DNA from: Candidatus Saccharimonadota bacterium
Lineage (GTDB): Bacteria; Patescibacteriota; Saccharimonadia; Saccharimonadales; Saccharimonadaceae
Length of the DNA: 32,000 bases
Assembly: GCA_025349965.1 (NCBI GenBank)
Contig: CP075337.1
Coordinates: 180,001-212,000, forward strand
Reading direction: 5' to 3'
A program made the translations under genes and the position numbers. How positions within the stretch are numbered: the stretch's first letter is position 1; each line of letters starts with the position of its first letter. Below are positions 1-25,613 of this stretch, in pieces. The notes under the pieces are model-generated. The model worked only from the letters and a program-made list of their open reading frames with translations. It was not told the DNA's origin and ran no database searches.

Positions 1-135
1 ATCCCGGATGATACGTTGCCACCTTTTAGGCCAAGCGGGATACGGTTGGGGACACCGGCGATGACGACACGAGGTGCGACTGTTGACGATATGATAGCGA
101 TTGCTCGTAAGGTCATCGAAGTATTAAGAGGGTAG
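1..135 (+). CDS. glyA: serine hydroxymethyltransferase, C-terminal fragment (5' end lies outside the window)
   Basis: Frame 1 reads IPDDTLPPFRPSGIRLGTPAMTTRGATVDDMIAIARKVIEVLRG*, with the TAG stop at 133-135. The PF..SGIR.GTPA.TTRG block is the conserved SHMT C-terminal signature. A hairpin terminator follows. Confidence 0.7.
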   Translation: MPDDTLPPFRPSGIRLGTPAMTTRGATVDDMIAIARKVIEVLRG

Positions 136-157
136 CAAGATAGCCCTTTTGAGAGAA

Positions 158-190
158 TAAAAATAGAGTCTGTGCAGACTCTATTTTTTA
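158..190. terminator. bidirectional rho-independent terminator between convergent glyA and the pilin gene
   Basis: aaaaATAGAGTCTGtgCAGACTCTATttttt: a perfect 10-bp stem at 163-184, with an A-run on the left and a T-run on the right. Confidence 0.7.
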
Positions 191-210
191 TGCAAGTTTT
201 TGGTTAAGTA

Positions 211-714
211 TTAGCTTGCCTGTCCGGCCATGTTTGCACAACTTGAGCCTGGAGTACCAACACTAATGGTCGTAAGACCTGCATTTGGAGATTTGTCGTA
301 CTGCCAGTAGCTAATTATTACGCCACCAGTTGAAGCGTCGTCAGAAGCTGCTGTTGAAGATTTTCCGCAAGCCTGAAGGTTAATGCGCTTTGTCCCGTTG
401 TCCTTAGTAACAACAGTCGCTGGAACGCCTGTTATTGTTGAGCTGTTGTCAATGTAGTAAGCCTTTGATGTATCAGTACCAAAGCTTGCGATTGCATATG
501 GGTAGCTACCAGTTTCAGCTTGGAAAAGCTCAATCTTCTTCTTCCATGTATTCGCAAGTGAAAGTGACGCTGAAGCGTTAGCCCTGTTTGTAATACCGTT
601 GTAAGAAACAATCGTGATCGCAGCAAGGATAGCGATAACGACAACAACGATGAGAAGTTCTACGATAGTGAAACCGCGCTTCGCTGTATTTAGTTTGATG
701 TCTGCAAGACTCAT
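211..714 (-). CDS. type IV pilin-like protein (probable major pilin)
   Basis: 167-aa ORF. The class III signal is KRG|FTIVELLIVVVVIAILAAITIV, with Glu at +5 and a hydrophobic helix. It has its own promoter-like element, a GGGGG Shine-Dalgarno (SD) sequence and a terminator. Confidence 0.85.
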   Translation of the reverse strand: MSLADIKLNTAKRGFTIVELLIVVVVIAILAAITIVSYNGITNRANASASLSLANTWKKKIELFQAETGSYPYAIASFGTDTSKAYYIDNSSTITGVPATVVTKDNGTKRINLQACGKSSTAASDDASTGGVIISYWQYDKSPNAGLTTISVGTPGSSCANMAGQAS

Positions 715-754
715 AGTAGAGTTGCCCCCTATTTGTTACTAATTATATGTCTAT

Positions 755-783
755 ATTCTAGCGTTCTTTTGTCTTAAGCACAA
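755..783 (-). promoter_or_regulatory. sigma70-like promoter for the major pilin gene
   Basis: The minus strand reads TTGTGC-17 nt-TAGAAT. The -35 is the complement of 778-783 and the -10 is the complement of 755-760. Confidence 0.45.
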
Positions 784-813
784 GCTTTTTACTCTAAGAT
801 TGAAATGTTCCTA

Positions 814-2883
814 CTATGACTCGGGTATAAAGGAGATGCCGTCGAGAGAGACCCAGGTGTTCGATGCGCCGTGCGCGGTAATTTGGCCGTCTGCCCATAC
901 GTCAAGTCGGCTATGTGCGCCCGCTGCAGGTGTCTGCATAAGGAGGCGTTCGGCTGGACGGTACCCAGGGGGAAGTGTAGCAATGGCGGCGCCAAGTGTG
1001 CCAGAGGCAACGAGACCTTTTAGGTGGACAACGCCGTCACTTGTCTTTGTGTACTGTGGCGTAGTAAACCCTGAGCCGCTATAGTTTGCCCAGCCATTTG
1101 AGAGGGGAAGGTTTATCCAGCCCGAATAAGACCCGGGAAGGTAAGCTACGTTAATAGAGTAAGCACCCGTTCCATCCCCCTTGGCAAGAAGGCCCTGAGT
1201 GGCATCAATGCCAAGATGGTGGAAGGTTCCTGAGCGTGATGGGAAGTGCATGTATTGAGAAGGTCGTGACGCTGCAGGGATGCTGAAGATTACAGTGCCA
1301 TTTGTTCGCGTTCCATTGGCGAGAAGCCCTTGTATGACAACTCGTCCAGCACTATCTTTCACATATGATGCAGGCGCCCAAGCCCCACCGTAGTTAGTGA
1401 AGCCATTTAGTAGTGTCGGTGTCGTTCTTGTATATGGCGCTGACTTTGCCGTGTAGCGAATGGAGTCGAGTGAATACCAGGCCGTATTACCGCCATCCAT
1501 GAAGACAATTTTTCCATCCTCCCAGAGGTCGACGCGTGAACTTGCATTTGAGTTAGTGGTATTTCCAAAGAAAAGTCTTCCGGTTGGTTGGTATTTTGCT
1601 GGAAGTTGGGCGATGGTGCTGCCTTGTGCAGCTGCCGATGCTTTTATCATCCCTTTGATAACTACGAACCCAGCAGAAGTCATCGAATACATAGCTGGAG
1701 AATAATTAGAAGAGTAGCGCGTCCAAGTGCCTTCTAGCGGTAGTGGTGACCAGAGTGGTATGCGTGTATCCTTTGTTGCATATGTTGAAGATCCTGTATT
1801 ATTTCGTGCAATTACACGGACCGACACAGTATCATTATTAATTGCTTCAGTAAGCTTGTAGGATGTGGCTGTAAGATTTGTGGCTGCTGATTGCCATGCA
1901 CCGCCATTAAGGCGATAATCCACGTCGTATACAGAGGCGTAGGATGCGCTTTGCCACGATATATCGACATCACTTCCATCAACGACTGCCATCGTAATAG
2001 ATGCTGGGGTAAAGGGACGGGGCTCGGATGTAACGGAGTTAAGTCGAGTTGCCCTCCGCTCCGTTGACTTGACGGTTTCACGTCCAGCAATATTTTTGCG
2101 CGCAGTAAGTGAGACTTGTACCGAACTTACATTTTGAAGTGCGGTGTCGCGTGCTGCGTCCGTGCCTGTTTTTGCTGCATTATTAGGGGAGACTGCGTTT
2201 GCGGAATTGTAGTAGGTGAAATTGAAGTCATTTTCCGATATACCGTCCAGAAGCTTGGTGTCGCTCGCCGCGCAGAAGGTATGCGTTGTTGCGGGTGCGC
2301 AGGTTGGGCGCTGGAAGAAAGTAGTGCCACCGCAGTACGTGAGAGGGTTGTTGTAGAAGTTCGGAACTACTACACGTCGCCATAGCGCATTTCCTGCTAC
2401 AAAATAGACGACATTTGTGTATAAAGGCGTGTTGAGTCTGTAATTCCCGGAACACGAATTGGGCTGATTGTTGAGGTAAAGGATCTGGGCGCCTGCGCCG
2501 CCAGCTGCTTGACGAAGGGGGTCTGCAGTGTAAGCAAATTGCTTAAGAATGAGCGCCTGTGGAGTGGCGTTGGATATATTCGTGAAATCTGTCGTGCTTC
2601 CTGTAGATGAGGGTGTGTCGGGATTGGCATTATACCCCTGAGGATTAGTGCTTGAGAATGCGATATCATTTTTTGCCAAAAATCGAGCACTGAGTCGCAC
2701 GTCTTCATCGATGCGATCAATAGCGTCCTGTACGTTATACTGTAGTACGCTTGCCTCTCTTGACTCAAGTGTACTGCCTGTGAGCGTTATGACAAGTGCG
2801 ATAAAGGCACCGATAGAAAGAATGATGATTGGCGCTACAACAAGCACTTCAACGAGGGTAAAGCCGCGCTGTAATCCACGCAT
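814..2883 (-). CDS. large minor-pilin-like protein with a C-terminal FN3 domain and a triple repeat module (pilus adhesin candidate)
   Basis: The ORF is open back to 2916. The ATG at 2883 (MRGLQRG|FTLVEVL, Glu +5) has a GGAGG 8-9 nt upstream and sits 1 nt after the stop of the upstream gene, so I prefer it. That gives 689 aa. Confidence 0.8.
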   Translation of the reverse strand: MRGLQRGFTLVEVLVVAPIIILSIGAFIALVITLTGSTLESREASVLQYNVQDAIDRIDEDVRLSARFLAKNDIAFSSTNPQGYNANPDTPSSTGSTTDFTNISNATPQALILKQFAYTADPLRQAAGGAGAQILYLNNQPNSCSGNYRLNTPLYTNVVYFVAGNALWRRVVVPNFYNNPLTYCGGTTFFQRPTCAPATTHTFCAASDTKLLDGISENDFNFTYYNSANAVSPNNAAKTGTDAARDTALQNVSSVQVSLTARKNIAGRETVKSTERRATRLNSVTSEPRPFTPASITMAVVDGSDVDISWQSASYASVYDVDYRLNGGAWQSAATNLTATSYKLTEAINNDTVSVRVIARNNTGSSTYATKDTRIPLWSPLPLEGTWTRYSSNYSPAMYSMTSAGFVVIKGMIKASAAAQGSTIAQLPAKYQPTGRLFFGNTTNSNASSRVDLWEDGKIVFMDGGNTAWYSLDSIRYTAKSAPYTRTTPTLLNGFTNYGGAWAPASYVKDSAGRVVIQGLLANGTRTNGTVIFSIPAASRPSQYMHFPSRSGTFHHLGIDATQGLLAKGDGTGAYSINVAYLPGSYSGWINLPLSNGWANYSGSGFTTPQYTKTSDGVVHLKGLVASGTLGAAIATLPPGYRPAERLLMQTPAAGAHSRLDVWADGQITAHGASNTWVSLDGISFIPES
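817..1752 (-). repeat. three tandem ~100-aa protein repeats inside the pilin-adhesin gene
   Basis: Units at 1429-1752, 1120-1428 and 817-1119 share the pattern L.L.NG(W/F).NY.......Y.K...G.V...G........G..I..(L/I)P...RP.........R(L/V)D.W.DG.I.....W.SLD.I. An FN3-like segment lies just upstream at 1753-2007. Confidence 0.6.
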
Positions 2884-2884
2884 C

Positions 2885-3283
2885 TTAAAGGCCCTCCGGT
2901 GATACATACGTGGCATGTGTTACTGTCTTCTGCGGTGAGCCATAGCGAATACTTGCGGTGATACGGTTGAGGTTAGGAAGTGACATATTTGGGCAGTCTC
3001 TTGTGACAGTTATCATTCCATCGCCAATGCCGTTGCCGAGATTTATCGATGGCTGATAGAAGAGCGTCGCAGGGGTGCACGGCGCAACCGCGCTGGTTGT
3101 GTAGCTTCTGACTCTAGAATACGCCATCGAGCCCACCTCCGCTTCCATTCGTGTGTTGCCACTCTCTGTAATGATTGCTATGTACAGTTGGTATCCAGTT
3201 GCAAGCGCCATGGCGGCAATAAAGAGTGTAATAAGGAGTTCGATAGCGGTAAAGCCTGGGTGAGTGGAATTATTGCGCATCAT
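2885..3283 (-). CDS. prepilin-type N-terminal cleavage/methylation domain protein (minor pilin-like)
   Basis: 132 aa with the signal THPG|FTAIELLITLFIAAMALA (Glu +5). Its start shares a 4-nt ATGA overlap with the upstream gene's stop. Confidence 0.8.
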   Translation of the reverse strand: MMRNNSTHPGFTAIELLITLFIAAMALATGYQLYIAIITESGNTRMEAEVGSMAYSRVRSYTTSAVAPCTPATLFYQPSINLGNGIGDGMITVTRDCPNMSLPNLNRITASIRYGSPQKTVTHATYVSPEGL

Positions 3284-3819
3284 TGATTTTTACTCGTTAC
3301 CATTTGAATAGAATCGTCTTTCTCAAGCCGATAATAAAGATTGAACTTCACACAGGTTGCGAGGAATGGGTCGATACAAACAGCTCCGGTTTTAGTGAGC
3401 GCTTGGTATACGTATGTCTTTGTGGTGGGTTGTGGCTGGACTCCGGTGGGTGTTTGCACGGCATTGGTAGCTTTTATAATGCTCGGTGGTTGATCGACGG
3501 ATACGCCAGGTGCCCGGAATATTTTTGGATCAGCTTCAGGTGTAATAATAGTGAGGCCTGAATTATCTAGGTATTCCACGCCAGGATACGAGCCGCCACT
3601 CATGAAGTACTGGTCGCCCCACATGGTAGAGCTACCGCTCATGGGGTTCTTGTAGTAACCCTCAAACTGTATTGCAATCGCCTCGATATCAGCTTTTCTT
3701 TCGGCGTCACGGGCGTTCACCTGACTTGCGTTCATACTGACAACAGCAAGCGCTAAAAGAATTCCAAGGATTGTAATTGTAATAACTATTTCAATAATAG
3801 AAAATCCACCACGCCGCAT
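3280..3819 (-). CDS. prepilin-type N-terminal cleavage/methylation domain protein (minor pilin-like)
   Basis: 179 aa with the signal MRRGG|FSIIEIVITITILGILLALAVV (Glu +5). It is the first gene of a three-gene pilin block. Confidence 0.8.
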   Translation of the reverse strand: MRRGGFSIIEIVITITILGILLALAVVSMNASQVNARDAERKADIEAIAIQFEGYYKNPMSGSSTMWGDQYFMSGGSYPGVEYLDNSGLTIITPEADPKIFRAPGVSVDQPPSIIKATNAVQTPTGVQPQPTTKTYVYQALTKTGAVCIDPFLATCVKFNLYYRLEKDDSIQMVTSKNQ

Positions 3820-3822
3820 ATG

Positions 3823-3831
3823 TATATAGCA
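3823..3831 (-). promoter_or_regulatory. extended -10-like box upstream of the pilin block
   Basis: The minus strand reads TGcTATATA, followed by only 3 nt (cat) before the ATG at 3819. That spacing is unusually short, so the call is uncertain. Confidence 0.3.
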
Positions 3832-3872
3832 TAAGAGTTTTGAGGCGATTCTGCAAGTGAAAAAGAGTAGGG

Positions 3873-4898
3873 CTAGGCGGTGATTTCGAGCGGTTCTTGC
3901 TCGATAATGACTTGGAATGTGTCACGTACTTTGCTGATAATCTCTTCGCGTGCCGCGGCAAGATCTTGATAGCCAGTCGCCGCTTCATTCACAAGCACGA
4001 GTGCATTTTTCTCGTAGACACGGATACCGTGAGAGACACTGCCTTTAAGACCTGCCTTCTCTATGAGCCACCCACTCGGCACCTTCATGCGCCCATCAGC
4101 CATCTCAAACATTTTAATGTCTGGGAAGTTTTGCCTTAATTCATTAGCGCGCCATGCGTCGATAATACTGTTTTTGAAGAAAGAGCCACTATTTGCAATA
4201 ACAGTAGGGTCGGGGAGCTTTTCGGCGCGAATTGTTTTTACTGCATCGCGAATTGTTTGCTGTGTGTAGAATGAGATATTGTTTGCATCAAGATATGATT
4301 GAAGCGTGTCATAGAACGGTGGAGCGGGAAGTGATTTGGAAAGCTGAAGTGTTATGCTCGTGATGATATAGCGTCCCTGCTGGTCACCTCTGAAAATACT
4401 GTGCCGATATGAAAAGTTGCAGTCCTCATTTTGCAGAACAGCAAACGCATCGTTTTGGGTGTCGTAGGCTTCAAGTGAAATGAGCGTCTCAGCAATTTCC
4501 TGCCCGTAGGCGCCTACATTTTGTACGGGTGCAGCCCCTGCTGTGCCAGGAATGGCGGACATAGCTTCAATTCCTGAAAGATTCATACTTACAGTGCGTT
4601 CGACGACACTATCCCATATTTCCCCCGCCCCAACCTTAATAGTCGTTGTGTTAAGGTCATCTGCAATAACTTCAAACCCAAGGATGCGCATACGAATAAC
4701 AAGCCCATCGAAGCCCTCGTCTCGTGCAAGCAGATTGCTTCCACCGCCCAGAATGAAGACAGGAAGTTGCTGTTGTTTCGCATTGCGGTAAAGAGCTTGT
4801 GCCTCTGCTGGGGAATGGGCATCAGCAAAAAATCGGGCTGGGCCACCGAGGCGCATCGTAGTAAAGTTTTTTAGGGGAATGTTTGTTCTGATATCCAT
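3873..4898 (-). CDS. murB: UDP-N-acetylenolpyruvoylglucosamine reductase
   Basis: 341 aa. The N-terminus PLKNFTTMRLGGPARFF and the GGGSNLL motif are typical of the MurB FAD-binding domain. Confidence 0.9.
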   Translation of the reverse strand: MDIRTNIPLKNFTTMRLGGPARFFADAHSPAEAQALYRNAKQQQLPVFILGGGSNLLARDEGFDGLVIRMRILGFEVIADDLNTTTIKVGAGEIWDSVVERTVSMNLSGIEAMSAIPGTAGAAPVQNVGAYGQEIAETLISLEAYDTQNDAFAVLQNEDCNFSYRHSIFRGDQQGRYIITSITLQLSKSLPAPPFYDTLQSYLDANNISFYTQQTIRDAVKTIRAEKLPDPTVIANSGSFFKNSIIDAWRANELRQNFPDIKMFEMADGRMKVPSGWLIEKAGLKGSVSHGIRVYEKNALVLVNEAATGYQDLAAAREEIISKVRDTFQVIIEQEPLEITA

Positions 4899-4938
4899 AG
4901 TTTCTCTTAATTTAAGTATAGCCCTTGAGGAGGGTTTA

Positions 4939-4947
4939 TGCTACAAT
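4939..4947 (+). promoter_or_regulatory. extended -10 box upstream of tRNA-Arg
   Basis: TGcTACAAT, 26 nt upstream of the mature tRNA 5' end. Confidence 0.4.
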
Positions 4948-4973
4948 AATTTTTGTACTTTGGTATGGTGTCT

Positions 4974-5050
4974 GCACCTGTAGCTCAGTGGATTAGAGCA
5001 TCTGTCTTCGGAACAGAGGGTCGTAGGTTCGAATCCTACCGGGTGTACCA
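4974..5050 (+). tRNA. tRNA-Arg (anticodon TCG), CCA encoded
   Basis: Hand-folded cloverleaf. Acceptor gcacctg/cgggtgt, D arm gctc..gagc, anticodon stem tctgt/acaga with loop ctTCGga, T arm gtagg-ttcgaat-cctac, discriminator a, then cca. Total 77 nt. Confidence 0.85.
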
Positions 5051-5052
5051 TA

Positions 5053-5081
5053 TTGACAAAACACACTAAGTGTGCTAAAGT
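5053..5081 (+). promoter_or_regulatory. sigma70-like promoter for tRNA-Lys
   Basis: TTGACA (5053-5058), a 17-nt spacer, then TGcTAAAGT with the -10 at 5076-5081. The tRNA begins at 5092. Confidence 0.55.
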
Positions 5082-5091
5082 AGAAGTATAT

Positions 5092-5168
5092 GGGACAGTA
5101 GCTCAGTTGGTTAGAGCGTCTGCCTCTTAAGCAGAATGTCGTGGGTTCAAATCCCACCTGTCCCTCCA
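5092..5168 (+). tRNA. tRNA-Lys (anticodon CTT), CCA encoded
   Basis: Hand-folded cloverleaf. Acceptor gggacag/ctgtccc, anticodon stem tctgc/gcaga with loop ctCTTaa, T arm gtggg-ttcaaat-cccac. Total 77 nt. Confidence 0.85.
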
Positions 5169-5175
5169 AGAAATC

Positions 5176-5212
5176 CCGCCGTTTCCACTTCTGGTGAACG
5201 GCGGCTTTTCTT
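5176..5212 (+). terminator. rho-independent terminator after the tRNA pair
   Basis: CCGCCGTT-13 nt loop-AACGGCGG, followed by cTTTTcTT. Confidence 0.6.
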
Positions 5213-5284
5213 GTAATGAGCCTTTAAAGAATGGTGCTTATGGCCTATAGTCAATGGTAAATAGGTGAGGGCGAGGGTATACAG

Positions 5285-6778
5285 ATGAGCATTTTTCTGA
5301 ACAAAAATAAGCAGCGTGGAAGAGGATTTACTCTTGTTGAACTTCTTATCGTTGTTGTTGTGATTGCGATTTTGGCAGCAATCATAGTAGTTGGATATAG
5401 GGGAGTGGTAGGCTCGGCTCGCGAAGCCTCTCTGCGGTCTGATCTTAAAAATGCAATTTCAGAATTATCGCAGTATAATCTCGCGAATCGTACCTATCCA
5501 GCGGACGGTTCTTCGCTTAAGTCGAGCAATGGAAATGTCTTTACGTACCAGAGTGATGGCTCAACCTATTGTCTTGCCGCCTACTCTGAATCGAATCCAG
5601 GCATGGTTTTCCGTGTCACTCAAGAGGAGAAGATTGAAAGCGGAAAGTGTGGTGCGGTAACTACAGTCATTGCGACAGGTAATCTGGCTACCTGCTCTGT
5701 CGCTTCGGCTAAGGCATATTGTTGGGGGCATGCTATGTGGGGCAAGCTTGGTACTATCTCGGGTGCAGATTCGAAAATCCCCGTAGCTGTCGATACTACT
5801 GGGGTGTTGGCCGGTAAGGAGGTCACGGCTATTGCTATAGGCCCTAATCATAGTTGTGCTATCGCTACCGGAAAGGTGTATTGTTGGGGCAAGAATCTAA
5901 GTGGACAACTTGGCGACACTACGACAACTCAGCGAATGACACCAGTTGCCGTTGATACAGCTGGTGCACTGGCGGGGAAGACTGCAACTGCCGTTACGGT
6001 AGGTGAAGATTATACCTGCACCCTTGCTTCGGGCGCGGTATATTGTTGGGGCAAGAATCAGTATGGGCAACTCGGCAATAATTCAACAGTTGCTGATGCA
6101 AAAGTTCCAGTCGCCGTTGATACCACTGGAGTACTCTCAGGAAAAACAGTAACAGCGATTGGCGGAGGATCATACCGAACTTGCGCCATTGCATCAGGCA
6201 AGGCATATTGCTGGGGCTGGAATGAGTATGGCGCCCTCGGGAATGGCTCGACAGTCGCTAGTTCAAATATCCCGGTCGCTGCTGATATTCCAGGAAAAAC
6301 AGTTACGGCGATTACGGCGGGGACGTGGCACACTTGCGCCATTGCCTCTGGGCAGGCATATTGCTGGGGGTCTGCTGGCTCTGGACGACTTGGTAATGGC
6401 GACTCGATGGCAAGTTCCAGTACGCCAGTTCCTGTCAGCACTGCTGGAGCGCTTGCTGGAAAGACAGTTACGGCGATTTCTTCGGGCAGTAATCATACTT
6501 GCGCCATTGCCTCTGGGCAGGCATATTGCTGGGGGTCTGCTAGCTCCGGACAGCTTGGTAACAATTCGACAATTGACTCTGATGTTCCGGTTGCTGTCAG
6601 TGTGGGAGGTGTATTGGCGGGTAAATCGGTCACAGCTATTGCGGGTGGAAGCTCTCATTCCTGTGCTATAGCTACCGGAAAGGTGTACTGCTGGGGTCTC
6701 AATAATTACGGAGGGCTAGGCAACGATTCCACGGCAAGTTCACCTATTCCAGTGCAGGCTGTCGATTACCCCTTGTAA
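5285..6778 (+). CDS. type IV pilin N-terminus fused to a seven-blade RCC1-like beta-propeller
   Basis: 497 aa. The signal is RGRG|FTLVELLIVVVVIAILAAIIVV (Glu +5). Seven repeats of (A/V)YCWG.....G.LG(N/D) follow, each next to a ...P(V/I)(A/P)V... segment. A GAGGG SD sits 9 nt upstream, and a strong terminator lies downstream. Confidence 0.85.
   Translation: MSIFLNKNKQRGRGFTLVELLIVVVVIAILAAIIVVGYRGVVGSAREASLRSDLKNAISELSQYNLANRTYPADGSSLKSSNGNVFTYQSDGSTYCLAAYSESNPGMVFRVTQEEKIESGKCGAVTTVIATGNLATCSVASAKAYCWGHAMWGKLGTISGADSKIPVAVDTTGVLAGKEVTAIAIGPNHSCAIATGKVYCWGKNLSGQLGDTTTTQRMTPVAVDTAGALAGKTATAVTVGEDYTCTLASGAVYCWGKNQYGQLGNNSTVADAKVPVAVDTTGVLSGKTVTAIGGGSYRTCAIASGKAYCWGWNEYGALGNGSTVASSNIPVAADIPGKTVTAITAGTWHTCAIASGQAYCWGSAGSGRLGNGDSMASSSTPVPVSTAGALAGKTVTAISSGSNHTCAIASGQAYCWGSASSGQLGNNSTIDSDVPVAVSVGGVLAGKSVTAIAGGSSHSCAIATGKVYCWGLNNYGGLGNDSTASSPIPVQAVDYPL
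5654..6775 (+). repeat. seven RCC1-type blade repeats (about 50-55 aa each)
   Basis: YCWG motifs recur seven times. Blades 5 and 6 share an identical 45-nt stretch (6332-6376 = 6497-6541). Blades 2 and 7 share tgtgctat.gctaccggaaaggtgta.tg.tgggg. Confidence 0.7.
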
Positions 6779-6786
6779 ATCGTTGT

Positions 6787-6828
6787 AGTCAATTAAAACA
6801 CCGCCCTTGAGCGGTGTTTTAATTGACT
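6787..6828. terminator. bidirectional terminator between convergent genes
   Basis: AGTCAATTAAAACACCGC-ccttga-GCGGTGTTTTAATTGACT: a perfect 18-bp stem whose A/T runs lie within the stem on both sides. Confidence 0.75.
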
Positions 6829-6840
6829 GTGATAGTTTTG

Positions 6841-7407
6841 CTACGCCTGTGAGTTGTTTTGAGGGGTTGGTGCTTCGTCGAGTGAAACTGTTGAGCTTTC
6901 TGGCTGCGCAGCTCCTTGTGGCGTATTTAGATCAAGTGAGGGGGCATTTGGCGCTGCGGATTCATCCCATGTTGACTTATCAACTGCAAGCCAAATAAAC
7001 CATACGATTGGGAAGAAAATTGCCCAGAGAAGGAATGCGCCGCTCTTGCCAAGTTTGAGGCCGATATTATACTGAGCGATGTAAAGCATTACCGCAGAGA
7101 CGATATTTACAATAGGAATGATTGCAAGTACGGCCCAGAATCCTGGCTGACCGCCAATTTCAAGCATCTTCCATGTATTTGCAAATGGTACCCATGCCAT
7201 CCAGCCCGGGGCGCCAGCTTTTTTGAAGATTTTCATAAGACAAATAGAGCTAACGATATATGATGCCAGAGCCATTGTCAGGACGAAAAATCCAAAGAAA
7301 AGTCCTACTGTTGCCTCGGTGCTTAACGAGTCACTACTGGTTGCTGTTGGTCCGTAAAGATCCATTGTCTCTGCTGTTGCCTGTGCGGTATATGTAAATA
7401 TATTCAT
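6841..7407 (-). CDS. multi-pass membrane protein, DUF5684-like
   Basis: 188 aa. The core MKIFKKAGAPGWMAWVPFANTWKMLEIGGQPGFWAVLAIIPIVNIV resembles the conserved KAG.PGW..(I/V)P..N block of the DUF5684 family, from memory. The C-terminal tail is low-complexity. Confidence 0.65.
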   Translation of the reverse strand: MNIFTYTAQATAETMDLYGPTATSSDSLSTEATVGLFFGFFVLTMALASYIVSSICLMKIFKKAGAPGWMAWVPFANTWKMLEIGGQPGFWAVLAIIPIVNIVSAVMLYIAQYNIGLKLGKSGAFLLWAIFFPIVWFIWLAVDKSTWDESAAPNAPSLDLNTPQGAAQPESSTVSLDEAPTPQNNSQA

Positions 7408-7416
7408 AGTGATTTC

Positions 7417-7425
7417 ATTGTAGCA
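7417..7425 (-). promoter_or_regulatory. extended -10 box for the membrane protein gene
   Basis: The minus strand reads TGcTACAAT, followed by 9 nt and then the ATG at 7407. Confidence 0.45.
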
Positions 7426-7432
7426 CGCAATT

Positions 7433-7441
7433 TGCTAGGCT
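7433..7441 (+). promoter_or_regulatory. extended -10-like box for folD
   Basis: TGcTAGGCT, followed by 6 nt (tagaat) and then the ATG at 7448. No SD is present. Confidence 0.4.
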
Positions 7442-7447
7442 TAGAAT

Positions 7448-8266
7448 ATGAAAGTTTTAAACGGCGCCGAATTGGCATTATTTATTAAAGAACGTCAGGC
7501 GAAGCAGGTTCGTGGGCTTCGACAGGCGTATGGCGTCTTTCCGAAGCTCGTTATTATCGTTGTCGGAGAGAATCCGGTCATTGACACCTTCGTGCGTCTA
7601 AAAGAGGCGTACGGCGCCGATATTCTTATTGATGTGGAAGTGCTTCGTATTTCGCAAGAGTCTATTTCTGAGACGCTTTCTAGGGCAAATGAAGACACGT
7701 CAGTTCATGGTATCGTTTTGCAACTTCCTCTGCCTGATCCATCCCAAACGGATGCGCTGGTTGCGCAGATCGCACCGGAAAAAGACGTTGATAGCCTTGG
7801 TGGCAGTGATGTACACGTTTCTGCGACCGCAATGGCGATTGACTGGCTTCTTAATGGATACAATGTCCAGCTTAAGGATCGTTCTATTGCGATTGTAGGA
7901 CGAGGACGGCTTGTTGGCGCACCGCTTGAAAGACTATGGAAAACAGCGGGACTTAGCGTGGATCTATACGATGATACTGTCCAGGATTTGGGCACCGAAC
8001 TGCGAAAAGCGGATATTATTGTCACTGCCACGGGTGTGCCAGGACTCATTACATCAGATATGATTGCACCCGGTAAAGTGGTGGTTGATGCTGGAACCGC
8101 CTCCGAGGGGGGTGTTATTGTCGGTGATCTCGCGCCGGATGTACGAGAGCGTACTGATCTTACTATTACGCCAATCAAGGGTGGTGTTGGCCCGCTTACA
8201 ATTGCAGCCCTATTTGATAATGTTATCGCGGCAGCACGCGCAACAGTGCCAAAAGAATTGCTTTAG
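7448..8266 (+). CDS. folD: bifunctional methylenetetrahydrofolate dehydrogenase / methenyltetrahydrofolate cyclohydrolase
   Basis: 272 aa with the motifs GIVLQLPLP, VGRGRLVGAPL and PIKGGVGPLTIA. Confidence 0.9.
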   Translation: MKVLNGAELALFIKERQAKQVRGLRQAYGVFPKLVIIVVGENPVIDTFVRLKEAYGADILIDVEVLRISQESISETLSRANEDTSVHGIVLQLPLPDPSQTDALVAQIAPEKDVDSLGGSDVHVSATAMAIDWLLNGYNVQLKDRSIAIVGRGRLVGAPLERLWKTAGLSVDLYDDTVQDLGTELRKADIIVTATGVPGLITSDMIAPGKVVVDAGTASEGGVIVGDLAPDVRERTDLTITPIKGGVGPLTIAALFDNVIAAARATVPKELL

Positions 8267-12456: not shown

Positions 12457-14007
12457 CTAGAGGCCAAGTGCACGACGGCTTGCAACGTAGTATACGGTGC
12501 TTGCAATCATTGCGCCAAGACCAACGATAGCGGCAACATCACCTGCACCAGTTTGTGGAAGCTCACCTGGAGTCTCCGGAGTTACTGGTGGAACTTCCTT
12601 ACAGTCTTCAAGGTTCTTTGAGTGCTTCTTAGCATCAAAGGCAGCTTCCTTGATGGTAATGATCGTCTTGCTGTTAAGCTCACAGACAACGATTTCGCCT
12701 GGCTGCTTACAGTCTTCAAGGTTCTTTGAGTGCTTCTTAGCATCAAAGTCGGCTTCCTTGATTGTGATGATCTTCTTTGTTGTAAGGTCACAAACAGTGA
12801 TCTTCTTACAGTCAGCGAGGTTCTTTGAGTGCTTCTTAGCATCAAAGTCCTTTTCGTTGATTGTGATGATCTTGTTTGTCGCTAGTTCACAAACTTGAAT
12901 CTTTACTTCAGGAGGGCAGTCCTTTTCAACTGTTACAGTTGCCTGATCTTCCTTTTTGTAACCGCCAGTAGAAACGCTACCGGTGTTTGTAAGTGTATTT
13001 GTACCACACTTAAGGTCTTTCTTGTCAGCAACCTTGGCGCTGAGCTTTGCCCATGCATTTGCCTTTGGTGCGTAAGAGCCCACATTAACGCCAACACCGT
13101 TTGTAAGTGCTAGGTCGCTTGTTGGCTTAACCTTTGGGTTACTTGCGTTACCCCAGTTTGCAGAGTTTGCTACATAGGTAAGTCCTGTAGGGAGCTTATC
13201 ACGGAAAGTAACATCGTTCTGGTTTGTCTGTCCTACGTTCTGGTATGAAAGAAGGAAGTCGACAGTTTCACCTGGTTGCGCCTTGTAGTTCTTTTCCCAC
13301 TTATCAGCACCCTTCTTACTTACAAACTTTGTAAGGTTGAAGTCGCTTTGCTTTTCAAATTGTGGCTTTACCTTGAAGGTAACATAGCCAGCGTACTGGA
13401 AACATCCAGGAATTTTACCGTCAAGCTTGTTATACCCAAGCTTCGCACCAGCACTTGTGAAAATGCTTTCAGGAAGCGTAGTACCAGCAGCGCCAAAGGC
13501 GTTGTTTTCATACTTTAGGCTGTTCTTGATGTAGGCAAGGTTAAAGTTTTTGTCGCTATTAAAGTTTGCGTGGTCGTATACTTCAACAGGCTTTGCGTTA
13601 CTTGAGTTAACAAATCCTTGTACCTGAATTGACTTTGCAGTTGTTGTAGGAAGGTTAAACTTCGCAGTTACGTTTTCTGCAACGAGGTTGAGGTTAGCAG
13701 CGGCGTTATTGTGTACATACATACGCACAAAGTATTCCTTGCCTTCCTTAACGGTCATGTCGTCGTACCAAACGTTGCTTGAGCCAACTTCGCGGATGCC
13801 CACAAAGTTACGTTCGTCGCCAATGTTTGGATTGTTTGTGATTGAGTTGAATGTTACATATGTAGCAGGTTTCTCAATTGTGAATGTCGCACGGCTTGGG
13901 CCCCAAGCAAACACAGCTGCCGGAACAATAATTGCTGCAGCAATAATCGCTACGATTGCGCTGAAGCGTCGAGGTGCGCGACGGATGAGAGATGTGAGTG
14001 ATTTCAT
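12457..14007 (-). CDS. LPXTG-anchored cell-surface protein with three Cys-bracketed repeats
   Basis: The ORF is open to a TTG at 14049. The ATG at 14007 (MKSLTSLIRRAPRRFSAIVAIIAAAIIVPAAVFA) has a GGAGA SD. The C-terminus is LPQTG plus a hydrophobic stretch plus SRRALGL, the classic sortase sorting signal. Confidence 0.8.
   Translation of the reverse strand: MKSLTSLIRRAPRRFSAIVAIIAAAIIVPAAVFAWGPSRATFTIEKPATYVTFNSITNNPNIGDERNFVGIREVGSSNVWYDDMTVKEGKEYFVRMYVHNNAAANLNLVAENVTAKFNLPTTTAKSIQVQGFVNSSNAKPVEVYDHANFNSDKNFNLAYIKNSLKYENNAFGAAGTTLPESIFTSAGAKLGYNKLDGKIPGCFQYAGYVTFKVKPQFEKQSDFNLTKFVSKKGADKWEKNYKAQPGETVDFLLSYQNVGQTNQNDVTFRDKLPTGLTYVANSANWGNASNPKVKPTSDLALTNGVGVNVGSYAPKANAWAKLSAKVADKKDLKCGTNTLTNTGSVSTGGYKKEDQATVTVEKDCPPEVKIQVCELATNKIITINEKDFDAKKHSKNLADCKKITVCDLTTKKIITIKEADFDAKKHSKNLEDCKQPGEIVVCELNSKTIITIKEAAFDAKKHSKNLEDCKEVPPVTPETPGELPQTGAGDVAAIVGLGAMIASTVYYVASRRALGL
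12598..12897 (-). repeat. three tandem coding repeats (108-nt and 99-nt periods)
   Basis: cttacagtcttcaaggttctttgagtgcttcttagcatcaaag recurs at 12598, 12706 and, slightly diverged, 12805. Each unit encodes VC(E/D)L...K.IITI.E..FDAKKHSKNL.DCK. Confidence 0.8.
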
Positions 14008-14072
14008 ATCTTTTCTCCTTTTCTTGATTCGTCTCGCAGATAGAATCAAATTAATTTATTGCGTAAATAATA

Positions 14073-14088
14073 AGACATACATATGTCT
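14073..14088. promoter_or_regulatory. palindromic operator-like site upstream of the LPXTG gene
   Basis: AGACATA-ca-TATGTCT, with 7-bp arms, lies 66-81 nt upstream of the ATG at 14007. Confidence 0.25.
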
Positions 14089-14130
14089 AGTATATGAGCG
14101 GAAGTGATGTCGCCGAATTGTTAATTACGC

Positions 14131-14161
14131 AACAAATCAGATTATTACAATGTGCACGTCT
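14131..14161. repeat. left copy of an imperfect inverted repeat bracketing the high-GC gene
   Basis: AACAAATCAGATTATTACAatGTGCAcGTCT. Its partner is the reverse complement of 15730-15758. Confidence 0.75.
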
Positions 14162-14249
14162 GAGCCATTGGGCTCACAAAACTACTCTACGGCGAATTGT
14201 ATATACAACTCAAGCTGGAGTGGGTTTGGAACGGGAGAATAGGGGTAGG

Positions 14250-14288
14250 GTGAGTGGGTGATCTGCGAAAGGCAGACCACCCACTCAC
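14250..14288 (-). terminator. long GC-rich hairpin 9 nt after the stop of the high-GC gene (terminator candidate with no U-tract)
   Basis: GTGAGTGGGTG (14250-14260) pairs perfectly with CACCCACTCAC (14278-14288). An inner TCTGC/GCAGA stem has a gaaag loop. The sequence downstream on the minus strand is C/T-rich rather than a T-run. Confidence 0.5.
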
Positions 14289-14297
14289 GGTGGATAG

Positions 14298-15512
14298 TTA
14301 GCAGCTGACACCCGGCATCGGCACGCATCCGGTCTCCGGCGCCTTCGGCTCAGGAGCCTTGGGTTCGGGAGCCGGCGGCGGCGTCGGGTCGGGCTTGGCT
14401 GCGGGCGGCGGTGCCACGGGGGGTGGCGGGTTCTCGCGAGGAGTGCTCGGCGGCTGCGTCGGAGTCGTCGGAGCACCTGGGCCGGGATCGTTGTTCTGGC
14501 CACCACCATCAGGGGCATTGCCCTGCTGGTACGGATCCTGTGACGGGTCCTTCGGCTCGACAACCGGTCCACAGTCCACGGTGCAAGGAGGGGGTCCACA
14601 GTCCACCGTACAAGGCGGCGGGCCGCAGTTCTCCGTGCACTCGGGGTTGGGCTTCGGCGACTTCGGCGTTTCGGATGGCTTCGGCTTTTCGGGCTCAACG
14701 CAGTGGAAGAGCTCGATGCGCCGGTCCTCAGCGTTGAAGCCGATCTTGATCAGGCATTTGTCGTTCTTGTCCGTGAGGACGCGAACCCATGCCGGCTTCG
14801 ACTCCTGATCCTTTGCCTGCTGCACGGACGGAAGACCCTTGCTGGGGTCCCACGTACCGGGCTGCTCCCAGTTACGGACAGAGGTGAGCGAATGCTTTCC
14901 CTCATCGTTGAATCGAAGCAGTACCGTGTTTGCCCAAGAGGCGTACATCTGGTACTGCTCGGTCACGATCCGCTTCTGGACCTCGTCTTTGTCATTGACG
15001 AGGTTCTTGACGAAGGAGTTCAGGCCGTTTGCCTCGATGTCCTTCTGGACTTCGCTGATCCAACCCTTGTTGGATTCCGCTCCCGGGATGCTCTTGTCAT
15101 CCCAGAGTTGCATCTCCTTGAGGTTCATCTCCAGGAACGTGGGGTTGCCACAGTTCTCGGCGAGAATTTCCTTGGTGACTGCAACGTCGTCCTTTCCGGT
15201 AAACGGAATGGAGACGGCGGTGCCGAACTGACGCTTTTCAGCGTTGCCTGCCTTCACGGTGCGAAGCGAGTGATCGACGAACGTGTCCGTCGTGCACAGC
15301 GCCTCTTCCGGAATTGCGTCCTTCTTCGGGTTGAACTCCACGGTGTGAAGTCCCTTGCTGTCAGCGGCGAAAGCCGGCTGGGCAGTCAGGGGGTTTCCGA
15401 AGATGGCCATACCTCCGAAGACGGCACCAGCGACGAGCGCCAATGCCAATGGAATCGCCCAGAGGAGGCGGTTATTGCGCCGCCTCTTCTTGTTATCTGC
15501 TTCCAAGTTCAT
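14298..15512 (-). CDS. secreted hypothetical protein with a Pro-rich, Cys-containing C-terminal tail (high-GC, foreign composition)
   Basis: I prefer the ATG at 15512 because AAGGAG lies 7 nt upstream. That gives 404 aa beginning MNLEADNKKRRRNNRLLWAIPLALALVAGAVFGGMAIFGNPLTAQPAFA|AD. The chosen frame has strongly G/C-biased third positions. I recognise no protein family. Confidence 0.7.
   Translation of the reverse strand: MNLEADNKKRRRNNRLLWAIPLALALVAGAVFGGMAIFGNPLTAQPAFAADSKGLHTVEFNPKKDAIPEEALCTTDTFVDHSLRTVKAGNAEKRQFGTAVSIPFTGKDDVAVTKEILAENCGNPTFLEMNLKEMQLWDDKSIPGAESNKGWISEVQKDIEANGLNSFVKNLVNDKDEVQKRIVTEQYQMYASWANTVLLRFNDEGKHSLTSVRNWEQPGTWDPSKGLPSVQQAKDQESKPAWVRVLTDKNDKCLIKIGFNAEDRRIELFHCVEPEKPKPSETPKSPKPNPECTENCGPPPCTVDCGPPPCTVDCGPVVEPKDPSQDPYQQGNAPDGGGQNNDPGPGAPTTPTQPPSTPRENPPPPVAPPPAAKPDPTPPPAPEPKAPEPKAPETGCVPMPGVSC
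14566..14619 (-). repeat. 27-nt tandem duplication encoding CGPPPCTVD x2
   Basis: ggtccacagtccacggtgcaaggaggg (14566-14592) is followed by ggtccacagtccaccgtacaaggcggc (14593-14619). A degenerate third unit (CTENCGPPP) lies on the higher-coordinate side. Confidence 0.7.
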
Positions 15513-15611
15513 TTTCTTACTCCTTTCCCCCTCGGGGGTGTTTGGTGCGCGTCGGCGCATCTAATTGATATTTAATTAAATGCGTTTCCGCAGCTGCCCC
15601 CACGGGTTCGA

Positions 15612-23645: not shown

Positions 23646-24809
23646 ATGAGAGTATACAGTAGAAATAATAATAAGTTCACCTTCAAGCTTGCCCTTGGTG
23701 TTGCCGTGGGATTGTTAAGTATTATAGGTATCGCTCAGTTTGTAAATAATACAACACAAACAGCACTTGCTCAGCAGCAAGGTGCACGTCTTATTACGCT
23801 CTACGACAGGGGTGAGACAACTTCTTTCATGACCGACAAGGCGACGATTGGCGAAGCGCTTGAGGCGGCCAGTATTCAGCTTGATGCTCGCGATGCGGTT
23901 GAGCCGGCACGTGATGAGAAGCTTGTCGCACCTGATTATCAGGTGAATGTCTATCGAGCACGTCCGGTAACGGTCATCGAGGGTGCGCAGCGCCAAAAAG
24001 TCTTTACGCCCTACCAGTCGGCCGAGCGAATTGTACGTGATCTAGGCATTGCACTTTATCCTGAAGACCATACAGACGTAACTCGTTCGGAGGATGTTCT
24101 TGGACAGGGCTCTGGCTTACAGCTAAGAATTATTCGCGCGGTACCATTTGAACTGACGCTGTATGGCCAGACAAACGCCGCTCGTACTCAGGCGAAGACA
24201 GTTGGTGAAATGTTGAAAGAGAAAGGTGTGAAGCTCGGTCAAGATGATCGTGTTTCTGTTCCGCTAGAAACTCCAATCACGGAAGGTATGCAGCTTCGTG
24301 TGTGGCGCGAGGGCAAGCAAACGATTACGGTTGATGAAGAGGTTGATTTCGCAACCGAGAAGATTCAGGATGCCGACCGCGAAGTTGGCTATAAGGAAGT
24401 AAAGACACCCGGTGAAAAGGGTGAGCGTTCTGTGACGTACGAAGTGGTTATTCAGGACGGTAAAGAGGTGAGTCGTACGGAAATTGCCAGCGTGACAAAG
24501 AAAGAGTCAAAGAAGCAAGTTGAAGTTGTCGGAACGAAGATGAAGAACAGTTTTAGTGGTAGTTTTGCCGAAGCGCTTGCACGCCTTCGTAGCTGTGAAG
24601 GAAGTTATACTTCTAATACCGGAAATGGGTATTATGGCGCATATCAGTATGACCTTAGGACATGGGGAAATTATAAGGGATATGCCAACGCATCACTTGC
24701 GCCTCCTCAGGTGCAGGATGAAAAGGCGTGGATTACTTATCAAGCTCGTGGCTGGCAGCCATGGCCAAGCTGTAGAATCTCGCAAGGTTTGCAGGATATC
24801 TACCGATAA
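23646..24809 (+). CDS. DUF348-G5 protein with a C-terminal Rpf-type transglycosylase-like domain (RpfB-like)
   Basis: 387 aa. It has an N-terminal membrane anchor and repeated DUF348-like segments. G5-like motifs are TPGEKGERSVTYEVVIQDGKEV. The C-terminus SCEGSYTSNTGNGYYGAYQYDLRTW...GWQPWPSC resembles Rpf domains. Confidence 0.8.
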   Translation: MRVYSRNNNKFTFKLALGVAVGLLSIIGIAQFVNNTTQTALAQQQGARLITLYDRGETTSFMTDKATIGEALEAASIQLDARDAVEPARDEKLVAPDYQVNVYRARPVTVIEGAQRQKVFTPYQSAERIVRDLGIALYPEDHTDVTRSEDVLGQGSGLQLRIIRAVPFELTLYGQTNAARTQAKTVGEMLKEKGVKLGQDDRVSVPLETPITEGMQLRVWREGKQTITVDEEVDFATEKIQDADREVGYKEVKTPGEKGERSVTYEVVIQDGKEVSRTEIASVTKKESKKQVEVVGTKMKNSFSGSFAEALARLRSCEGSYTSNTGNGYYGAYQYDLRTWGNYKGYANASLAPPQVQDEKAWITYQARGWQPWPSCRISQGLQDIYR

Positions 24810-25594
24810 TGGCGGGTCCTAAAAAATCACTCGGCCAGCATTGGCTCAAAGACCGTGAAATATTAGCGGAAATTGCCAATGAAGTGACACTTACAAAGAG
24901 TGATACTGTCCTTGAGATTGGTCCGGGTCTTGGAACATTAACCAGTGAACTACTGCGCCGTTCTGGTAGGGTGGTTGCGGTTGAGATTGACCAAGACTTA
25001 GCACGCAAGCTTCCGGGGCAATTTCCGGGTACGTCACTAGAAGTAGTAAACCAAGATATTCTCACCTATGATTTAACGCAACTTCCAAAAGGGTATAGCG
25101 TTGTCGCAAATGTGCCGTACTATATTACATCGAAAATCGTTCAGTATTTAGTCACTTCCGATAATCCACCGCGTGAAATTGTCTTATTGATTCAAAAGGA
25201 AGTCGCAGAGCGTATTGTTGCCGAGCCGGGTGACATGAGTATTTTGGCGATTAGTGCTCAAATATACGCGACTGCACGTCTTGGCATTGAAGTGCCGGCT
25301 GAATACTTTACACCACCGCCAAAGGTGGACAGTCAAGTGGTAATTCTTACTATGCGCACAGAGCCTCTTGTGAAGAAAGAAGATGAACGGCTTTTCTTTA
25401 GGGTTGTTAAGGCTGGATTTGCGGCAAAGCGCAAGAAACTGCGCAGTAGTCTTGCTGGCGGGCTTCACTTAAGTAAGCCTGACGTAGAAGACCTCCTGGG
25501 TAAAGCTGGTATTTCACCGGAAAAACGCGCAGAAGACCTATCTATTGCCGAGTGGCTTCAGCTGATGGCGGTTGTTGCTCCTGCGCTCTCGTAA
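24809..25594 (+). CDS. rsmA: 16S rRNA (adenine1518/1519-N6)-dimethyltransferase
   Basis: 261 aa with the motifs SLGQHWL, EIGPGLGTLT and ANVPYYITS. The start overlaps the upstream stop by 1 nt (TAATG). Confidence 0.9.
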   Translation: MAGPKKSLGQHWLKDREILAEIANEVTLTKSDTVLEIGPGLGTLTSELLRRSGRVVAVEIDQDLARKLPGQFPGTSLEVVNQDILTYDLTQLPKGYSVVANVPYYITSKIVQYLVTSDNPPREIVLLIQKEVAERIVAEPGDMSILAISAQIYATARLGIEVPAEYFTPPPKVDSQVVILTMRTEPLVKKEDERLFFRVVKAGFAAKRKKLRSSLAGGLHLSKPDVEDLLGKAGISPEKRAEDLSIAEWLQLMAVVAPALS

Positions 25595-25597
25595 AAG

Positions 25598-25606
25598 TGC
25601 TACAAT
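25598..25606 (+). promoter_or_regulatory. extended -10 box for the second DUF348-G5 gene
   Basis: TGcTACAAT, followed by 7 nt and then the ATG at 25614. Confidence 0.45.
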
Positions 25607-25613
25607 ATACCTA

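Follow-up and report, generated by a model that had tools for sequence, protein, structure and literature searches.

What does a type IV pilin do with a phage receptor-binding module at its C-terminus? The question is raised by a gene at positions 814–2883 of a 32,000-nucleotide (nt) stretch of Candidatus Saccharimonadota bacterium DNA (contig CP075337.1, positions 180,001 to 212,000 of the forward strand; hereafter the window). The gene lies on the minus strand and encodes a protein with a prepilin signal and a pilin domain at its N-terminus, an apparent fibronectin type III (FN3)-like spacer, and three C-terminal repeats that are related to the receptor-binding protein (RBP) heads of siphophages. 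The protein belongs to a conserved pilin operon, and its C-terminal part is mosaic relative to the pilin scaffold. The reading that we consider probable is that of a modular type IV minor pilin that is located at the pilus tip and acts as a glycan-binding, host-recognizing adhesin.

The C-terminal repeats and their phage relatives

A first-pass annotation of the window had described the C-terminal region of the protein as three repeats of ∼100 amino acids (aa) that share a consensus. Plain BLASTP self-comparison detected no internal repeats in this region, and profile–profile comparison was required. When sub-alignments of orthologues were compared with hhalign, the repeats proved to be mutually homologous with probabilities of 99.7–100% (E-values of 1.8e-25 for repeats 1 and 2, 6.3e-42 for repeats 1 and 3, and 4.8e-27 for repeats 2 and 3). 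The three repeats were thus borne out, and the consensus was recognizable in repeats 1 and 3 but not in repeat 2, which is degenerate. The annotation had also tied the repeat motif to the receptor-binding modules of phage tails, and PHROG tail families, PSA gp15, and Foldseek matches to RBP heads all agree with this assignment. At the profile level, the repeats match the C-terminal ∼100 positions of PHROG minor tail families 3285 (E 6e-23), 3639, and 11445, and they also match PHROG 5339 (virion structural protein) and 7127 (receptor binding tail protein). Against the PDB, the repeat profile gave a weak match to gp15 of Listeria phage PSA (E 0.0039). In Pfam, the isolated repeats returned nothing meaningful (one chance-level match at E 0.29), and PF08931 (lactophage RBP head) matched none of them even at E up to 10; the sole protein in which this model exceeds its cutoff is P0062, a relative with multiple repeats (33.9 versus 26.7 bits). 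No Pfam-A model in the scanned copy detected the repeat triplet in the protein. The orthologue P0025 carries a precomputed PF27455.1 annotation that was not recovered in the scan against the local Pfam copy, and a very recently defined family may exist under this accession (PF27455) and cover part of the protein described here.

At the structural level, the Foldseek search of the triplet against the PDB returned PSA gp15 (6r5w; probability 1.0, root-mean-square deviation (rmsd) 3.1 over ∼115 columns), the TP901-1 RBP (2f0c/3d8m/3da0; probability 0.97–0.99), and the p2 RBP (2bsd/1zru/2wzp; probability 0.69–0.95). Together with single-domain matches in BFVD at rmsd 1–3, these results show that each repeat has the beta-sandwich fold of RBP heads. 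Among predicted viral structures, there are many phage proteins in which one region corresponds to a single repeat (rmsd 1–3, 28–35% identity). Structure and profile searches of the repeats, proposed in the annotation as a check, returned phage RBP-head domains. Beta-propellers (TolB, BamB) that topped the triplet search of the PDB by E-value were rejected as spurious (TM 0.15).

The three repeats appear to form a single unit. The AlphaFold2 (AF2) model of residues 375–689 is very confident (predicted local distance difference test (pLDDT) score of 95.4, predicted template modeling (pTM) score of 0.92), with each repeat forming an eight-to-ten-stranded beta domain, so the repeats are predicted to constitute one rigid body. 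The earlier proposal of three receptor-binding modules is therefore retained in part: the repeats are RBP-related, but they probably make up one rigid triplet rather than three independent modules. The whole triplet superposes on gp37 of Microbacterium phage Truong (E 1.3e-21, query TM-score (TMq) 0.91, rmsd 2.1 over 349 columns, 22% identity), which is the last tail gene before the endolysin. The Truong repeats best match the pilin repeats that occupy the same position (diagonal scores of 48.5, 31.5, and 33.4 bits), and because the phage and pilin repeats correspond position by position, the triplet is an old unit rather than the product of recent triplication.

The same conclusion about the unit is suggested by copy numbers. 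A HMMER scan of 1.84 billion representative proteins with the repeat profile gave 22,251 matches at E up to 0.001, and copies were counted by re-scanning 146 of the 150 best-scoring module carriers. The number of copies is a multiple of three in 125 of these 146 proteins (88 with three, 26 with six, and others with 9, 12, 15, 18, or 24), and the gaps in long arrays run short-short-long (e.g. 7, 5, 48, 6, 8, 48). Since the copies mostly come in multiples of three, the triplet is the structural unit. It stands at the extreme C-terminus in 86 of the 88 three-copy carriers, 46 of the 88 have a prepilin motif, and every complete orthologue scanned in genome loci has exactly three copies. Solved siphophage RBP heads contain one copy per chain and are functional as homotrimers; the PSA gp15 entry 6r5w was deposited with three chains. 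Because the solved phage heads are homotrimers, the triplet may be a single-chain pseudo-trimer that mimics the trimeric phage head. The module also occurs in a group of giant proteins of 1,000–6,500 aa (P0047–P0064), which contain 9–33 copies arranged as triplets with linkers of ∼20–50 aa; in P0048, for example, gaps of 7, 5, and 48 recur between 18 copies. The pilin motif was found in none of the P0047–P0064 giants with nine or more copies.

Among 107 module-carrying phage records, 80 are Arthrobacter, Microbacterium, or Streptomyces phages. The triple form occurs in Microbacterium phages, and a single terminal copy is present in tail proteins of Arthrobacter, Streptomyces, Geobacillus, Staphylococcus, and Bacillus phages. 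These single-copy matches align to triplet residues ∼204–312, i.e. to repeat 3. Actinobacteria are the host phylum of the few cultivated Patescibacteria, mostly Saccharibacteria (PMC10633639), and the link between actinophages and the hosts of Saccharibacteria is suggestive.

The pilin scaffold, the spacer, and the operon

The protein begins with MRGLQRG/FTLVEVLVVAPIIIL, which comprises a basic leader, Gly at −1, Phe at +1, and Glu at +5, as in prepilin signals. The class III signal that had been read from the sequence (LQRG/FTLVEVL with Glu at +5) is corroborated by 24 aligned orthologues, in which F8, T9, and E12 are invariant and G7 is nearly invariant (at least 90%). The region of aa 8–64 is the most conserved part of the protein (mean pairwise identity of 60% among orthologues), and Cys 144, 184, 195, and 204 of the pilin domain are invariant in orthologues. 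The AF2 model of the N-terminal 292 aa, calculated from a 28-sequence alignment (pLDDT 88.9, pTM 0.84), has the lollipop fold of pilins, with a single 55-residue α1 helix (residues 10–64) followed by a beta-rich domain. The best match of this domain in the PDB by Foldseek is 2ret_B from the EpsI:EpsJ complex (E 4.7e-4, probability 1.0, target TM-score (TMt) 0.60), and XcpW (3nje) and GspJ of the GspK-I-J complex (3ci0_J) are further top matches (top probabilities of 0.98–1.0). Ranks 1–11 are occupied only by chains of EpsI:EpsJ, XcpW, XcpVWX, and GspK-I-J (probability 0.85–1.0, TMt 0.39–0.63), and the type IV-like pilin TTHA1219 from Thermus comes next after these minor pseudopilins. The curated PilW and GspJ models missed the protein (PF16074 PilW scored 13.1 bits against a cutoff of 26, and TIGR01711 GspJ was not listed), and NCBIfam gave weak matches to ComGD and ComGF. 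On the strength of the modeled fold, the pilin domain would specifically be of the GspJ/PilW class, which argues for location at the pilus tip. GspJ in pseudopili and PilW in type IV pili are equivalent subunits of the priming complexes that are found at the tips of these filaments.

For the segment between the pilin domain and the triplet (aa ∼285–374), an FN3/immunoglobulin (Ig)-like identity is tentatively indicated by two phmmer matches in the PDB, to titin FN3 (E 1.7e-5) and to FN3con (E 0.007), and by an Ig_3 match in orthologue P0040. The annotation had placed an FN3-like segment after ∼330 aa; its presence is weakly supported by the titin match, but its start lies near aa 285–293. Because the segment is missing from several orthologues of ∼600 aa (P0041, L048, L051, L057, and L079), it seems to behave as an optional spacer.

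The longest open frame of the gene extends from 814 to 2916 on the minus strand (700 codons from the first ATG). The ATG at 2883 nevertheless appears to be the better, credible start because it is preceded by a Shine-Dalgarno sequence (Table 1), leaves a 1-nt gap (2884) to the TAA of the upstream pilin gene at 2887–2885, agrees with the 689 aa obtained when genes on the source contig were called independently, and gives a leader about as long as that of most aligned orthologues. A start at 2916 was rejected, as it would create a 32-nt overlap with the upstream gene, lacks a Shine-Dalgarno sequence, and would give a leader that exceeds those of most aligned orthologues.

In the operon, the large pilin gene follows genes for pilins of 179 and 132 aa and precedes a gene for a major-pilin-like protein. 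The stops and starts of the first three genes overlap or abut. Both junctions that had been annotated, the ATGA overlap of the first two genes (3283–3280, checked base by base) and the 1-nt gap before the third, were seen in the sequence. The large pilin gene, which had been taken for the last of a three-gene pilin block, is actually the third of four: the major-pilin-like gene, whose product contains 43.7% Gly, Ala, Ser, and Thr (GAST) residues, starts 99 nt after it. No terminator-like site was found on the minus strand within 100–5300, including the interval between these two genes. The same order (a pilin of ∼175 aa, a pilin of ∼130 aa, the large pilin, and one or two pilins of ∼160 aa) is kept in dozens of genomes, and in most related loci one or two major-pilin-like genes follow the large pilin. 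The gsp operons run H-I-J, and the placement of the large pilin gene after two small pilin genes resembles that order. The operon is located between murB and the gene for serine hydroxymethyltransferase (SHMT), with no phage genes nearby.

Table 1. Features of the large pilin gene and its operon (coordinates refer to the window)
Feature	Coordinates	Strand	Evidence
First operon pilin, 179 aa	3280–3819	−	N_methyl 23.0 bits; weak GspG/GspH/PilA matches
Upstream pilin, 132 aa	2885–3283	−	N_methyl 22.0 bits and TIGR02532 21.6 bits, both above cutoff; position conserved in related loci
Shine-Dalgarno sequence GGAGGG	2897–2892	−	8 nt upstream of ATG 2883; read from the sequence
Coding sequence of the modular minor pilin (probable), 689 aa	814–2883	−	Open reading frame list; stop codon 816–814
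Prepilin leader MRGLQRG (aa 1–7), ending in Gly at −1	2863–2883	−	Sequence; conservation in orthologues
Mature N-terminus and long α1 helix (aa 8–64), with Glu5	2692–2862	−	AF2 helix over residues 10–64
Globular pilin domain (aa 65–284), GspJ/EpsJ/XcpW(PilW)-like	2032–2691	−	AF2 and Foldseek; weak Pfam PilW match
Putative FN3/Ig-like beta-sandwich spacer (aa 285–374)	1762–2031	−	phmmer against PDB; sub-cutoff Pfam fn3
Repeat 1 (aa 375–487), phage-RBP-head-like	1423–1761	−	hhalign; C-termini of PHROG tail proteins; AF2 pLDDT >90
Repeat 2 (aa 488–587), most divergent copy	1123–1422	−	hhalign; lowest pairwise identity of the three, 35%
Repeat 3 (aa 588–689), extreme C-terminus, nearest to single-copy phage modules	817–1122	−	phrog_13022 E 9.4e-15; phrog_3285 (minor tail) E 6.7e-10
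Downstream major-pilin-like gene, 167 aa	211–714	−	N_methyl 29.1 bits; PpdD-like E 6.9e-10; GspG E 2.3e-8

The window contains a further pilin gene and several genes for proteins of unusual composition. On the opposite strand, 2.4 kb from the large pilin gene, the gene at 5285–6778 (+) encodes a prepilin N-terminus (N_methyl 30.3 bits) followed by a seven-repeat RCC1 beta-propeller (WD40_RLD E 2.5e-93); this protein has 16 Cys and 46.5% GAST residues. The gene at 12457–14049 (−) encodes a predicted surface protein of 530 aa with an N-terminal signal-like segment, a DUF11 domain, and three repeats of ∼35 aa (KIITIxExxFDAKKHSKNLxDCK); its C-terminus consists of LPQTG, a hydrophobic tail, and basic residues, i.e. 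a sortase-type cell-wall anchor. The 420-aa protein encoded at 14298–15560 (−) has no Pfam match, the last third of its sequence is rich in proline and contains repeated CGPPPCTVD units, and its gene explains the local peak in GC content (0.575 at 14001–15000). Paralogous DUF348-G5 proteins are encoded on either side of a ksgA-type rRNA dimethylase gene, at 23646–24809 (+) and 25572–26789 (+), and the former also contains a transglycosylase-like (Rpf-type) domain.

Family distribution and cassette exchange

A word-indexed search with the protein found 46 proteins at E up to 0.001, with 28–58% identity when the window's own protein is set aside; query coverage was at least 99% in all but two (79% and 43%). 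Relatives are encoded in 144 genomes in a scan of one genome per species. The best 80 related loci were retrieved, and statements on loci refer to this set, nearly all members of which are titled Candidatus Saccharibacteria, Saccharimonadales, or Microsaccharimonas. The pilin scaffold is found with and without the C-terminal module. In the syntenic locus L058, which shares with the window the order folD, DUF5684, murB, two pilins, large-pilin gene, pilin, and SHMT gene, the large-pilin gene encodes a 289-aa scaffold that has no C-terminal module, and scaffold-only proteins of 243–291 aa are common. The same scaffold also occurs with fibrinogen-C/COLFI-like modules (P0045, P0196), with Laminin_G_3 (P0199), or as an unassigned 422-aa form.

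Scaffold and module differ in their relatedness between close relatives. In the pairs P0014/P0033 and P0015/P0020, the pilin domains are 97–99% identical and the repeats just 30–48%, and the reverse is found in P0003/P0004, where the pilin domains are 55–67% and the repeats 78–95% identical. Judged from these comparisons, the C-terminal part is an exchangeable cassette that is mosaic relative to the pilin scaffold. In one pair of loci from two species-level Saccharibacteria genomes (L001, gene 5965–8067; L002, gene 6001–8091), a block of ∼330 nt at alignment positions ∼1230–1560, which spans repeat 1 and runs into the beginning of repeat 2, is 100% identical, and the genes are 41–81% identical outside the block in the same sliding windows. 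The block would represent either a very recent recombination event or an assembly chimera. Invariance of the repeat region between strains, which the annotation had named as evidence against a role in host recognition, was thus not observed; the region is mosaic and exchangeable and bears signs of recombination.

Two groups of loci have additional genes. In L027 (4467–5963) and L035 (4319–5956), an extra open reading frame (498 and 545 aa, respectively) directly upstream of the large pilin also encodes a three-repeat cassette, as would be expected of a tandem paralogue or a spare cassette. Loci with a scaffold-only paralogue also encode large proteins that start with GFALPTVLIAS (L073, 3981–5573 and 942–3266; L075, 3301–5562), and L073 additionally encodes an RCC1-like protein. 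This composition suggests a second, differently composed set of minor pilins in the same genomes.

Function and comparison with known systems

From the domain architecture, the fold similarities, and the mosaicism, we infer tip location, glycan binding, and host recognition as follows. The GspJ/PilW-class pilin and the two small pilins encoded upstream would join a minor-pilin complex that primes assembly and finally occupies the tip of the filament, where the FN3-like spacer would hold out the C-terminal effector of three RBP-head copies. Siphophage receptor-binding proteins use beta-sandwich heads as homotrimers that bind cell-wall saccharides, and with a single-chain pseudo-trimer, one subunit per pilus would suffice to display a whole phage-type head. 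This head would bind a glycan on the surface of the host bacterium, and extension and retraction of the pilus would capture the host and pull the epibiont onto it. Recombination could exchange the cassette independently of the pilin scaffold and thereby retune specificity. A bolder version, which we put forward only tentatively, is that Saccharibacteria and phages of Gram-positive (mainly actinobacterial) hosts share a pool of receptor-binding cassettes, that the cassette is displayed as a pseudo-trimer at the pilus tip, and that host range is changed by cassette swap, much as phages exchange the tips of their tail fibers.

Several observations weigh against the host-adhesin interpretation. 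The curated pilin motif models missed the protein marginally (Pfam N_methyl PF07963, 14.8 versus 21.2 bits; TIGR02532, 15.9 versus 16.3 bits), unlike the three neighboring operon pilins, which exceed the cutoffs for the prepilin motif. The spacer scored 19.4 bits (E 1.3e-3) with Pfam fn3 (PF00041), under the cutoff of 25. No genes for type IV pilus machinery or prepilin peptidase (PilD) are present in the 32-kb window. The E-values of the triplet in the Foldseek search of the PDB were weak (0.01–0.2) despite the high probabilities, and no ligand-binding residues were identified in the triplet. A threefold assembly is a prediction from the three copies per chain, the triplet pTM of 0.92, and the multiples of three with short-short-long spacing in related proteins. 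The enrichment of actinophages among module carriers may partly reflect which phages were sequenced. In TM7x (Nanosynbacter lyticus), whose minor pilins PilX1 (a jelly roll) and PilX2 (an RCC1 propeller) are lectin-like, SignalP predicted no PilD signals for these two large pilins (PMC11623550).

The alternative that survives best keeps the tip adhesin and changes its ligand: the protein would bind an environmental or biofilm polysaccharide, other epibionts, or its own envelope, or serve general attachment or twitching. One argument for it is the wide range of saccharides that are bound by proteins with RBP-head or lectin-like folds. In TM7x, deletion of pilX2 halves host binding and rhamnose nearly abolished attachment, and PilX1, the jelly-roll protein, is encoded in the machinery-containing locus (T4P-1) of an essential pilus with a known twitching function (PMC11623550). 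The host-binding phenotype was thus shown for the RCC1 protein PilX2, and the PilX2-like pilin-RCC1 gene of the window could be the host-binding determinant instead. The cassette, however, is swapped between close relatives as a specificity determinant would be, and it is most closely related to phage tail proteins, which recognize bacterial envelopes; the phages concerned infect Gram-positive bacteria, mostly Actinobacteria. We therefore regard a non-host ligand as a real but lesser possibility.

It is unlikely that the protein is part of a type IV filament other than a pilus, i.e. a pseudopilus of the type II secretion system (T2SS) or Com type, whose module would probe the cell wall or be anchored in it. 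Structurally, the pilin domain is indeed closest to T2SS pseudopilins (2ret_B, XcpW, and GspJ), but GspJ and PilW are structurally equivalent, so the fold does not discriminate between the two kinds of filament. The weak ComGD and ComGF matches and the lack of pilus machinery in the window also point toward a pseudopilus; against them stand the major-pilin-like gene that follows in the operon and an outward-facing predicted binding module of 400 aa, which is more in keeping with a surface filament than with a piston in the periplasm. Moreover, true type IV pili are known from cultivated Saccharibacteria (PMC11623550, PMC9894109).

An even smaller probability is given to the triplet being a non-binding structural cap or spacer, or a decoy that sequesters phages or competitors. 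The loss of the consensus motif in repeat 2 and the lack of identified ligand-binding residues would fit such a role. In phage tail proteins, however, this fold family forms the receptor-binding tip, the other modules found on the scaffold (fibrinogen-C, LamG) are lectin-like as well, and swapping between near-identical scaffolds would be unexpected for a purely structural cap. Finally, a prophage or phage-remnant tail gene with a coincidentally pilin-like N-terminus, to which the wide occurrence of the module in phage tail proteins might point, is highly improbable and was rejected on genomic context, given the conserved chromosomal pilin operon between murB and SHMT without nearby phage genes, the high-confidence pilin model of the N-terminal 292 aa, and the presence of the family in about 144 species-level genomes.

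How ultrasmall epibionts belonging to the candidate phyla radiation (CPR) locate the correct host and hold on to it is largely obscure, and the lectin-like pilins studied so far are just two, both from a single cultivated oral strain. The family described here is a concrete and widespread candidate for host recognition in environmental Saccharibacteria, which combines a confidently modeled putative binding module with an evolutionary link to phage receptor-binding proteins. Loci in which the same scaffold occurs with the cassette, without it, or with different cassettes are natural “experiments”. If the cassette sets host specificity, the hosts of uncultivated Saccharibacteria could be predicted from cassette sequence, which is directly testable, and the triplet would provide a compact single-chain binder of phage type for engineering.

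Modular pilins have been described in Streptococcus sanguinis (PilB, which bears a vWA module, and PilC, which bears a lectin module), enterotoxigenic Escherichia coli (CofB), and Vibrio cholerae (TcpB); they were argued to be accommodated exclusively at the tip of the pilus and to function in adhesion, and the concept spans multi-domain additions and includes CPR examples (PMC8179133). The tip model based on GspK-I-J is stated in the same paper (PMC8179133). Like these proteins (Raynaud et al. 2021, PMC8179133), the protein of the window has an N-terminal pilin and a bulky C-terminal effector on a linker, and its pilin module (aa 1–284) and triplet (aa 375–689) model as separate confident domains. 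It is unlike the described examples in that the carrier is a large GspJ/PilW-like domain and the effector is an RBP-head-like triplet. With PilX1 and PilX2 of TM7x it shares the status of a Saccharibacteria minor pilin that is the largest in its locus, has a lectin-like C-terminus, and is proposed to be a tip adhesin. PilX1 is described as having a single L-type-lectin-like jelly roll, whereas the protein of the window has an FN3-like spacer and an RBP-head triplet; scaffold relatives with Laminin_G_3 (P0199) may be closer to PilX1. The pilin-RCC1 protein of the window has the architecture of PilX2. No Nanosynbacter record was present among the best 80 related loci.

On the phage side, the heads of siphophage RBPs (PSA gp15, 6R5W; TP901-1, 2F0C; p2, 2BSD/1ZRU; PF08931) share the beta-sandwich fold with each repeat and are likewise located at the extreme C-terminus of tail proteins, but they are present as one copy per chain instead of three diverged copies in a single chain. 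The same whole triplet is found in minor tail proteins of Microbacterium phages (Truong gp37, Akoni gp37, and Big4 gp90; tblastn covers 90–98% of the triplet), which differ in having a tail-protein carrier instead of a pilin and whose sequence identity to the pilin is just 24–34%. GspJ (EpsJ, XcpW) and PilW share the fold of the N-terminal 292 aa, and their systems are distinguished by the lack of a 400-aa C-terminal extension; a GspK/PilX-like capping pilin is absent from the operon described here. The literature that was searched contained no account of an RBP-head triplet on a pilin, of a Saccharibacteria pilin linked to tail fibers, or of a single-chain pseudo-trimeric RBP. In summary, modular pilins and, from TM7x, lectin-like minor pilins in Saccharibacteria were already known; the RBP-head triplet as effector, its structural identity with actinophage tail tips, and the exchange of cassettes on a GspJ/PilW-like scaffold appear to be new.

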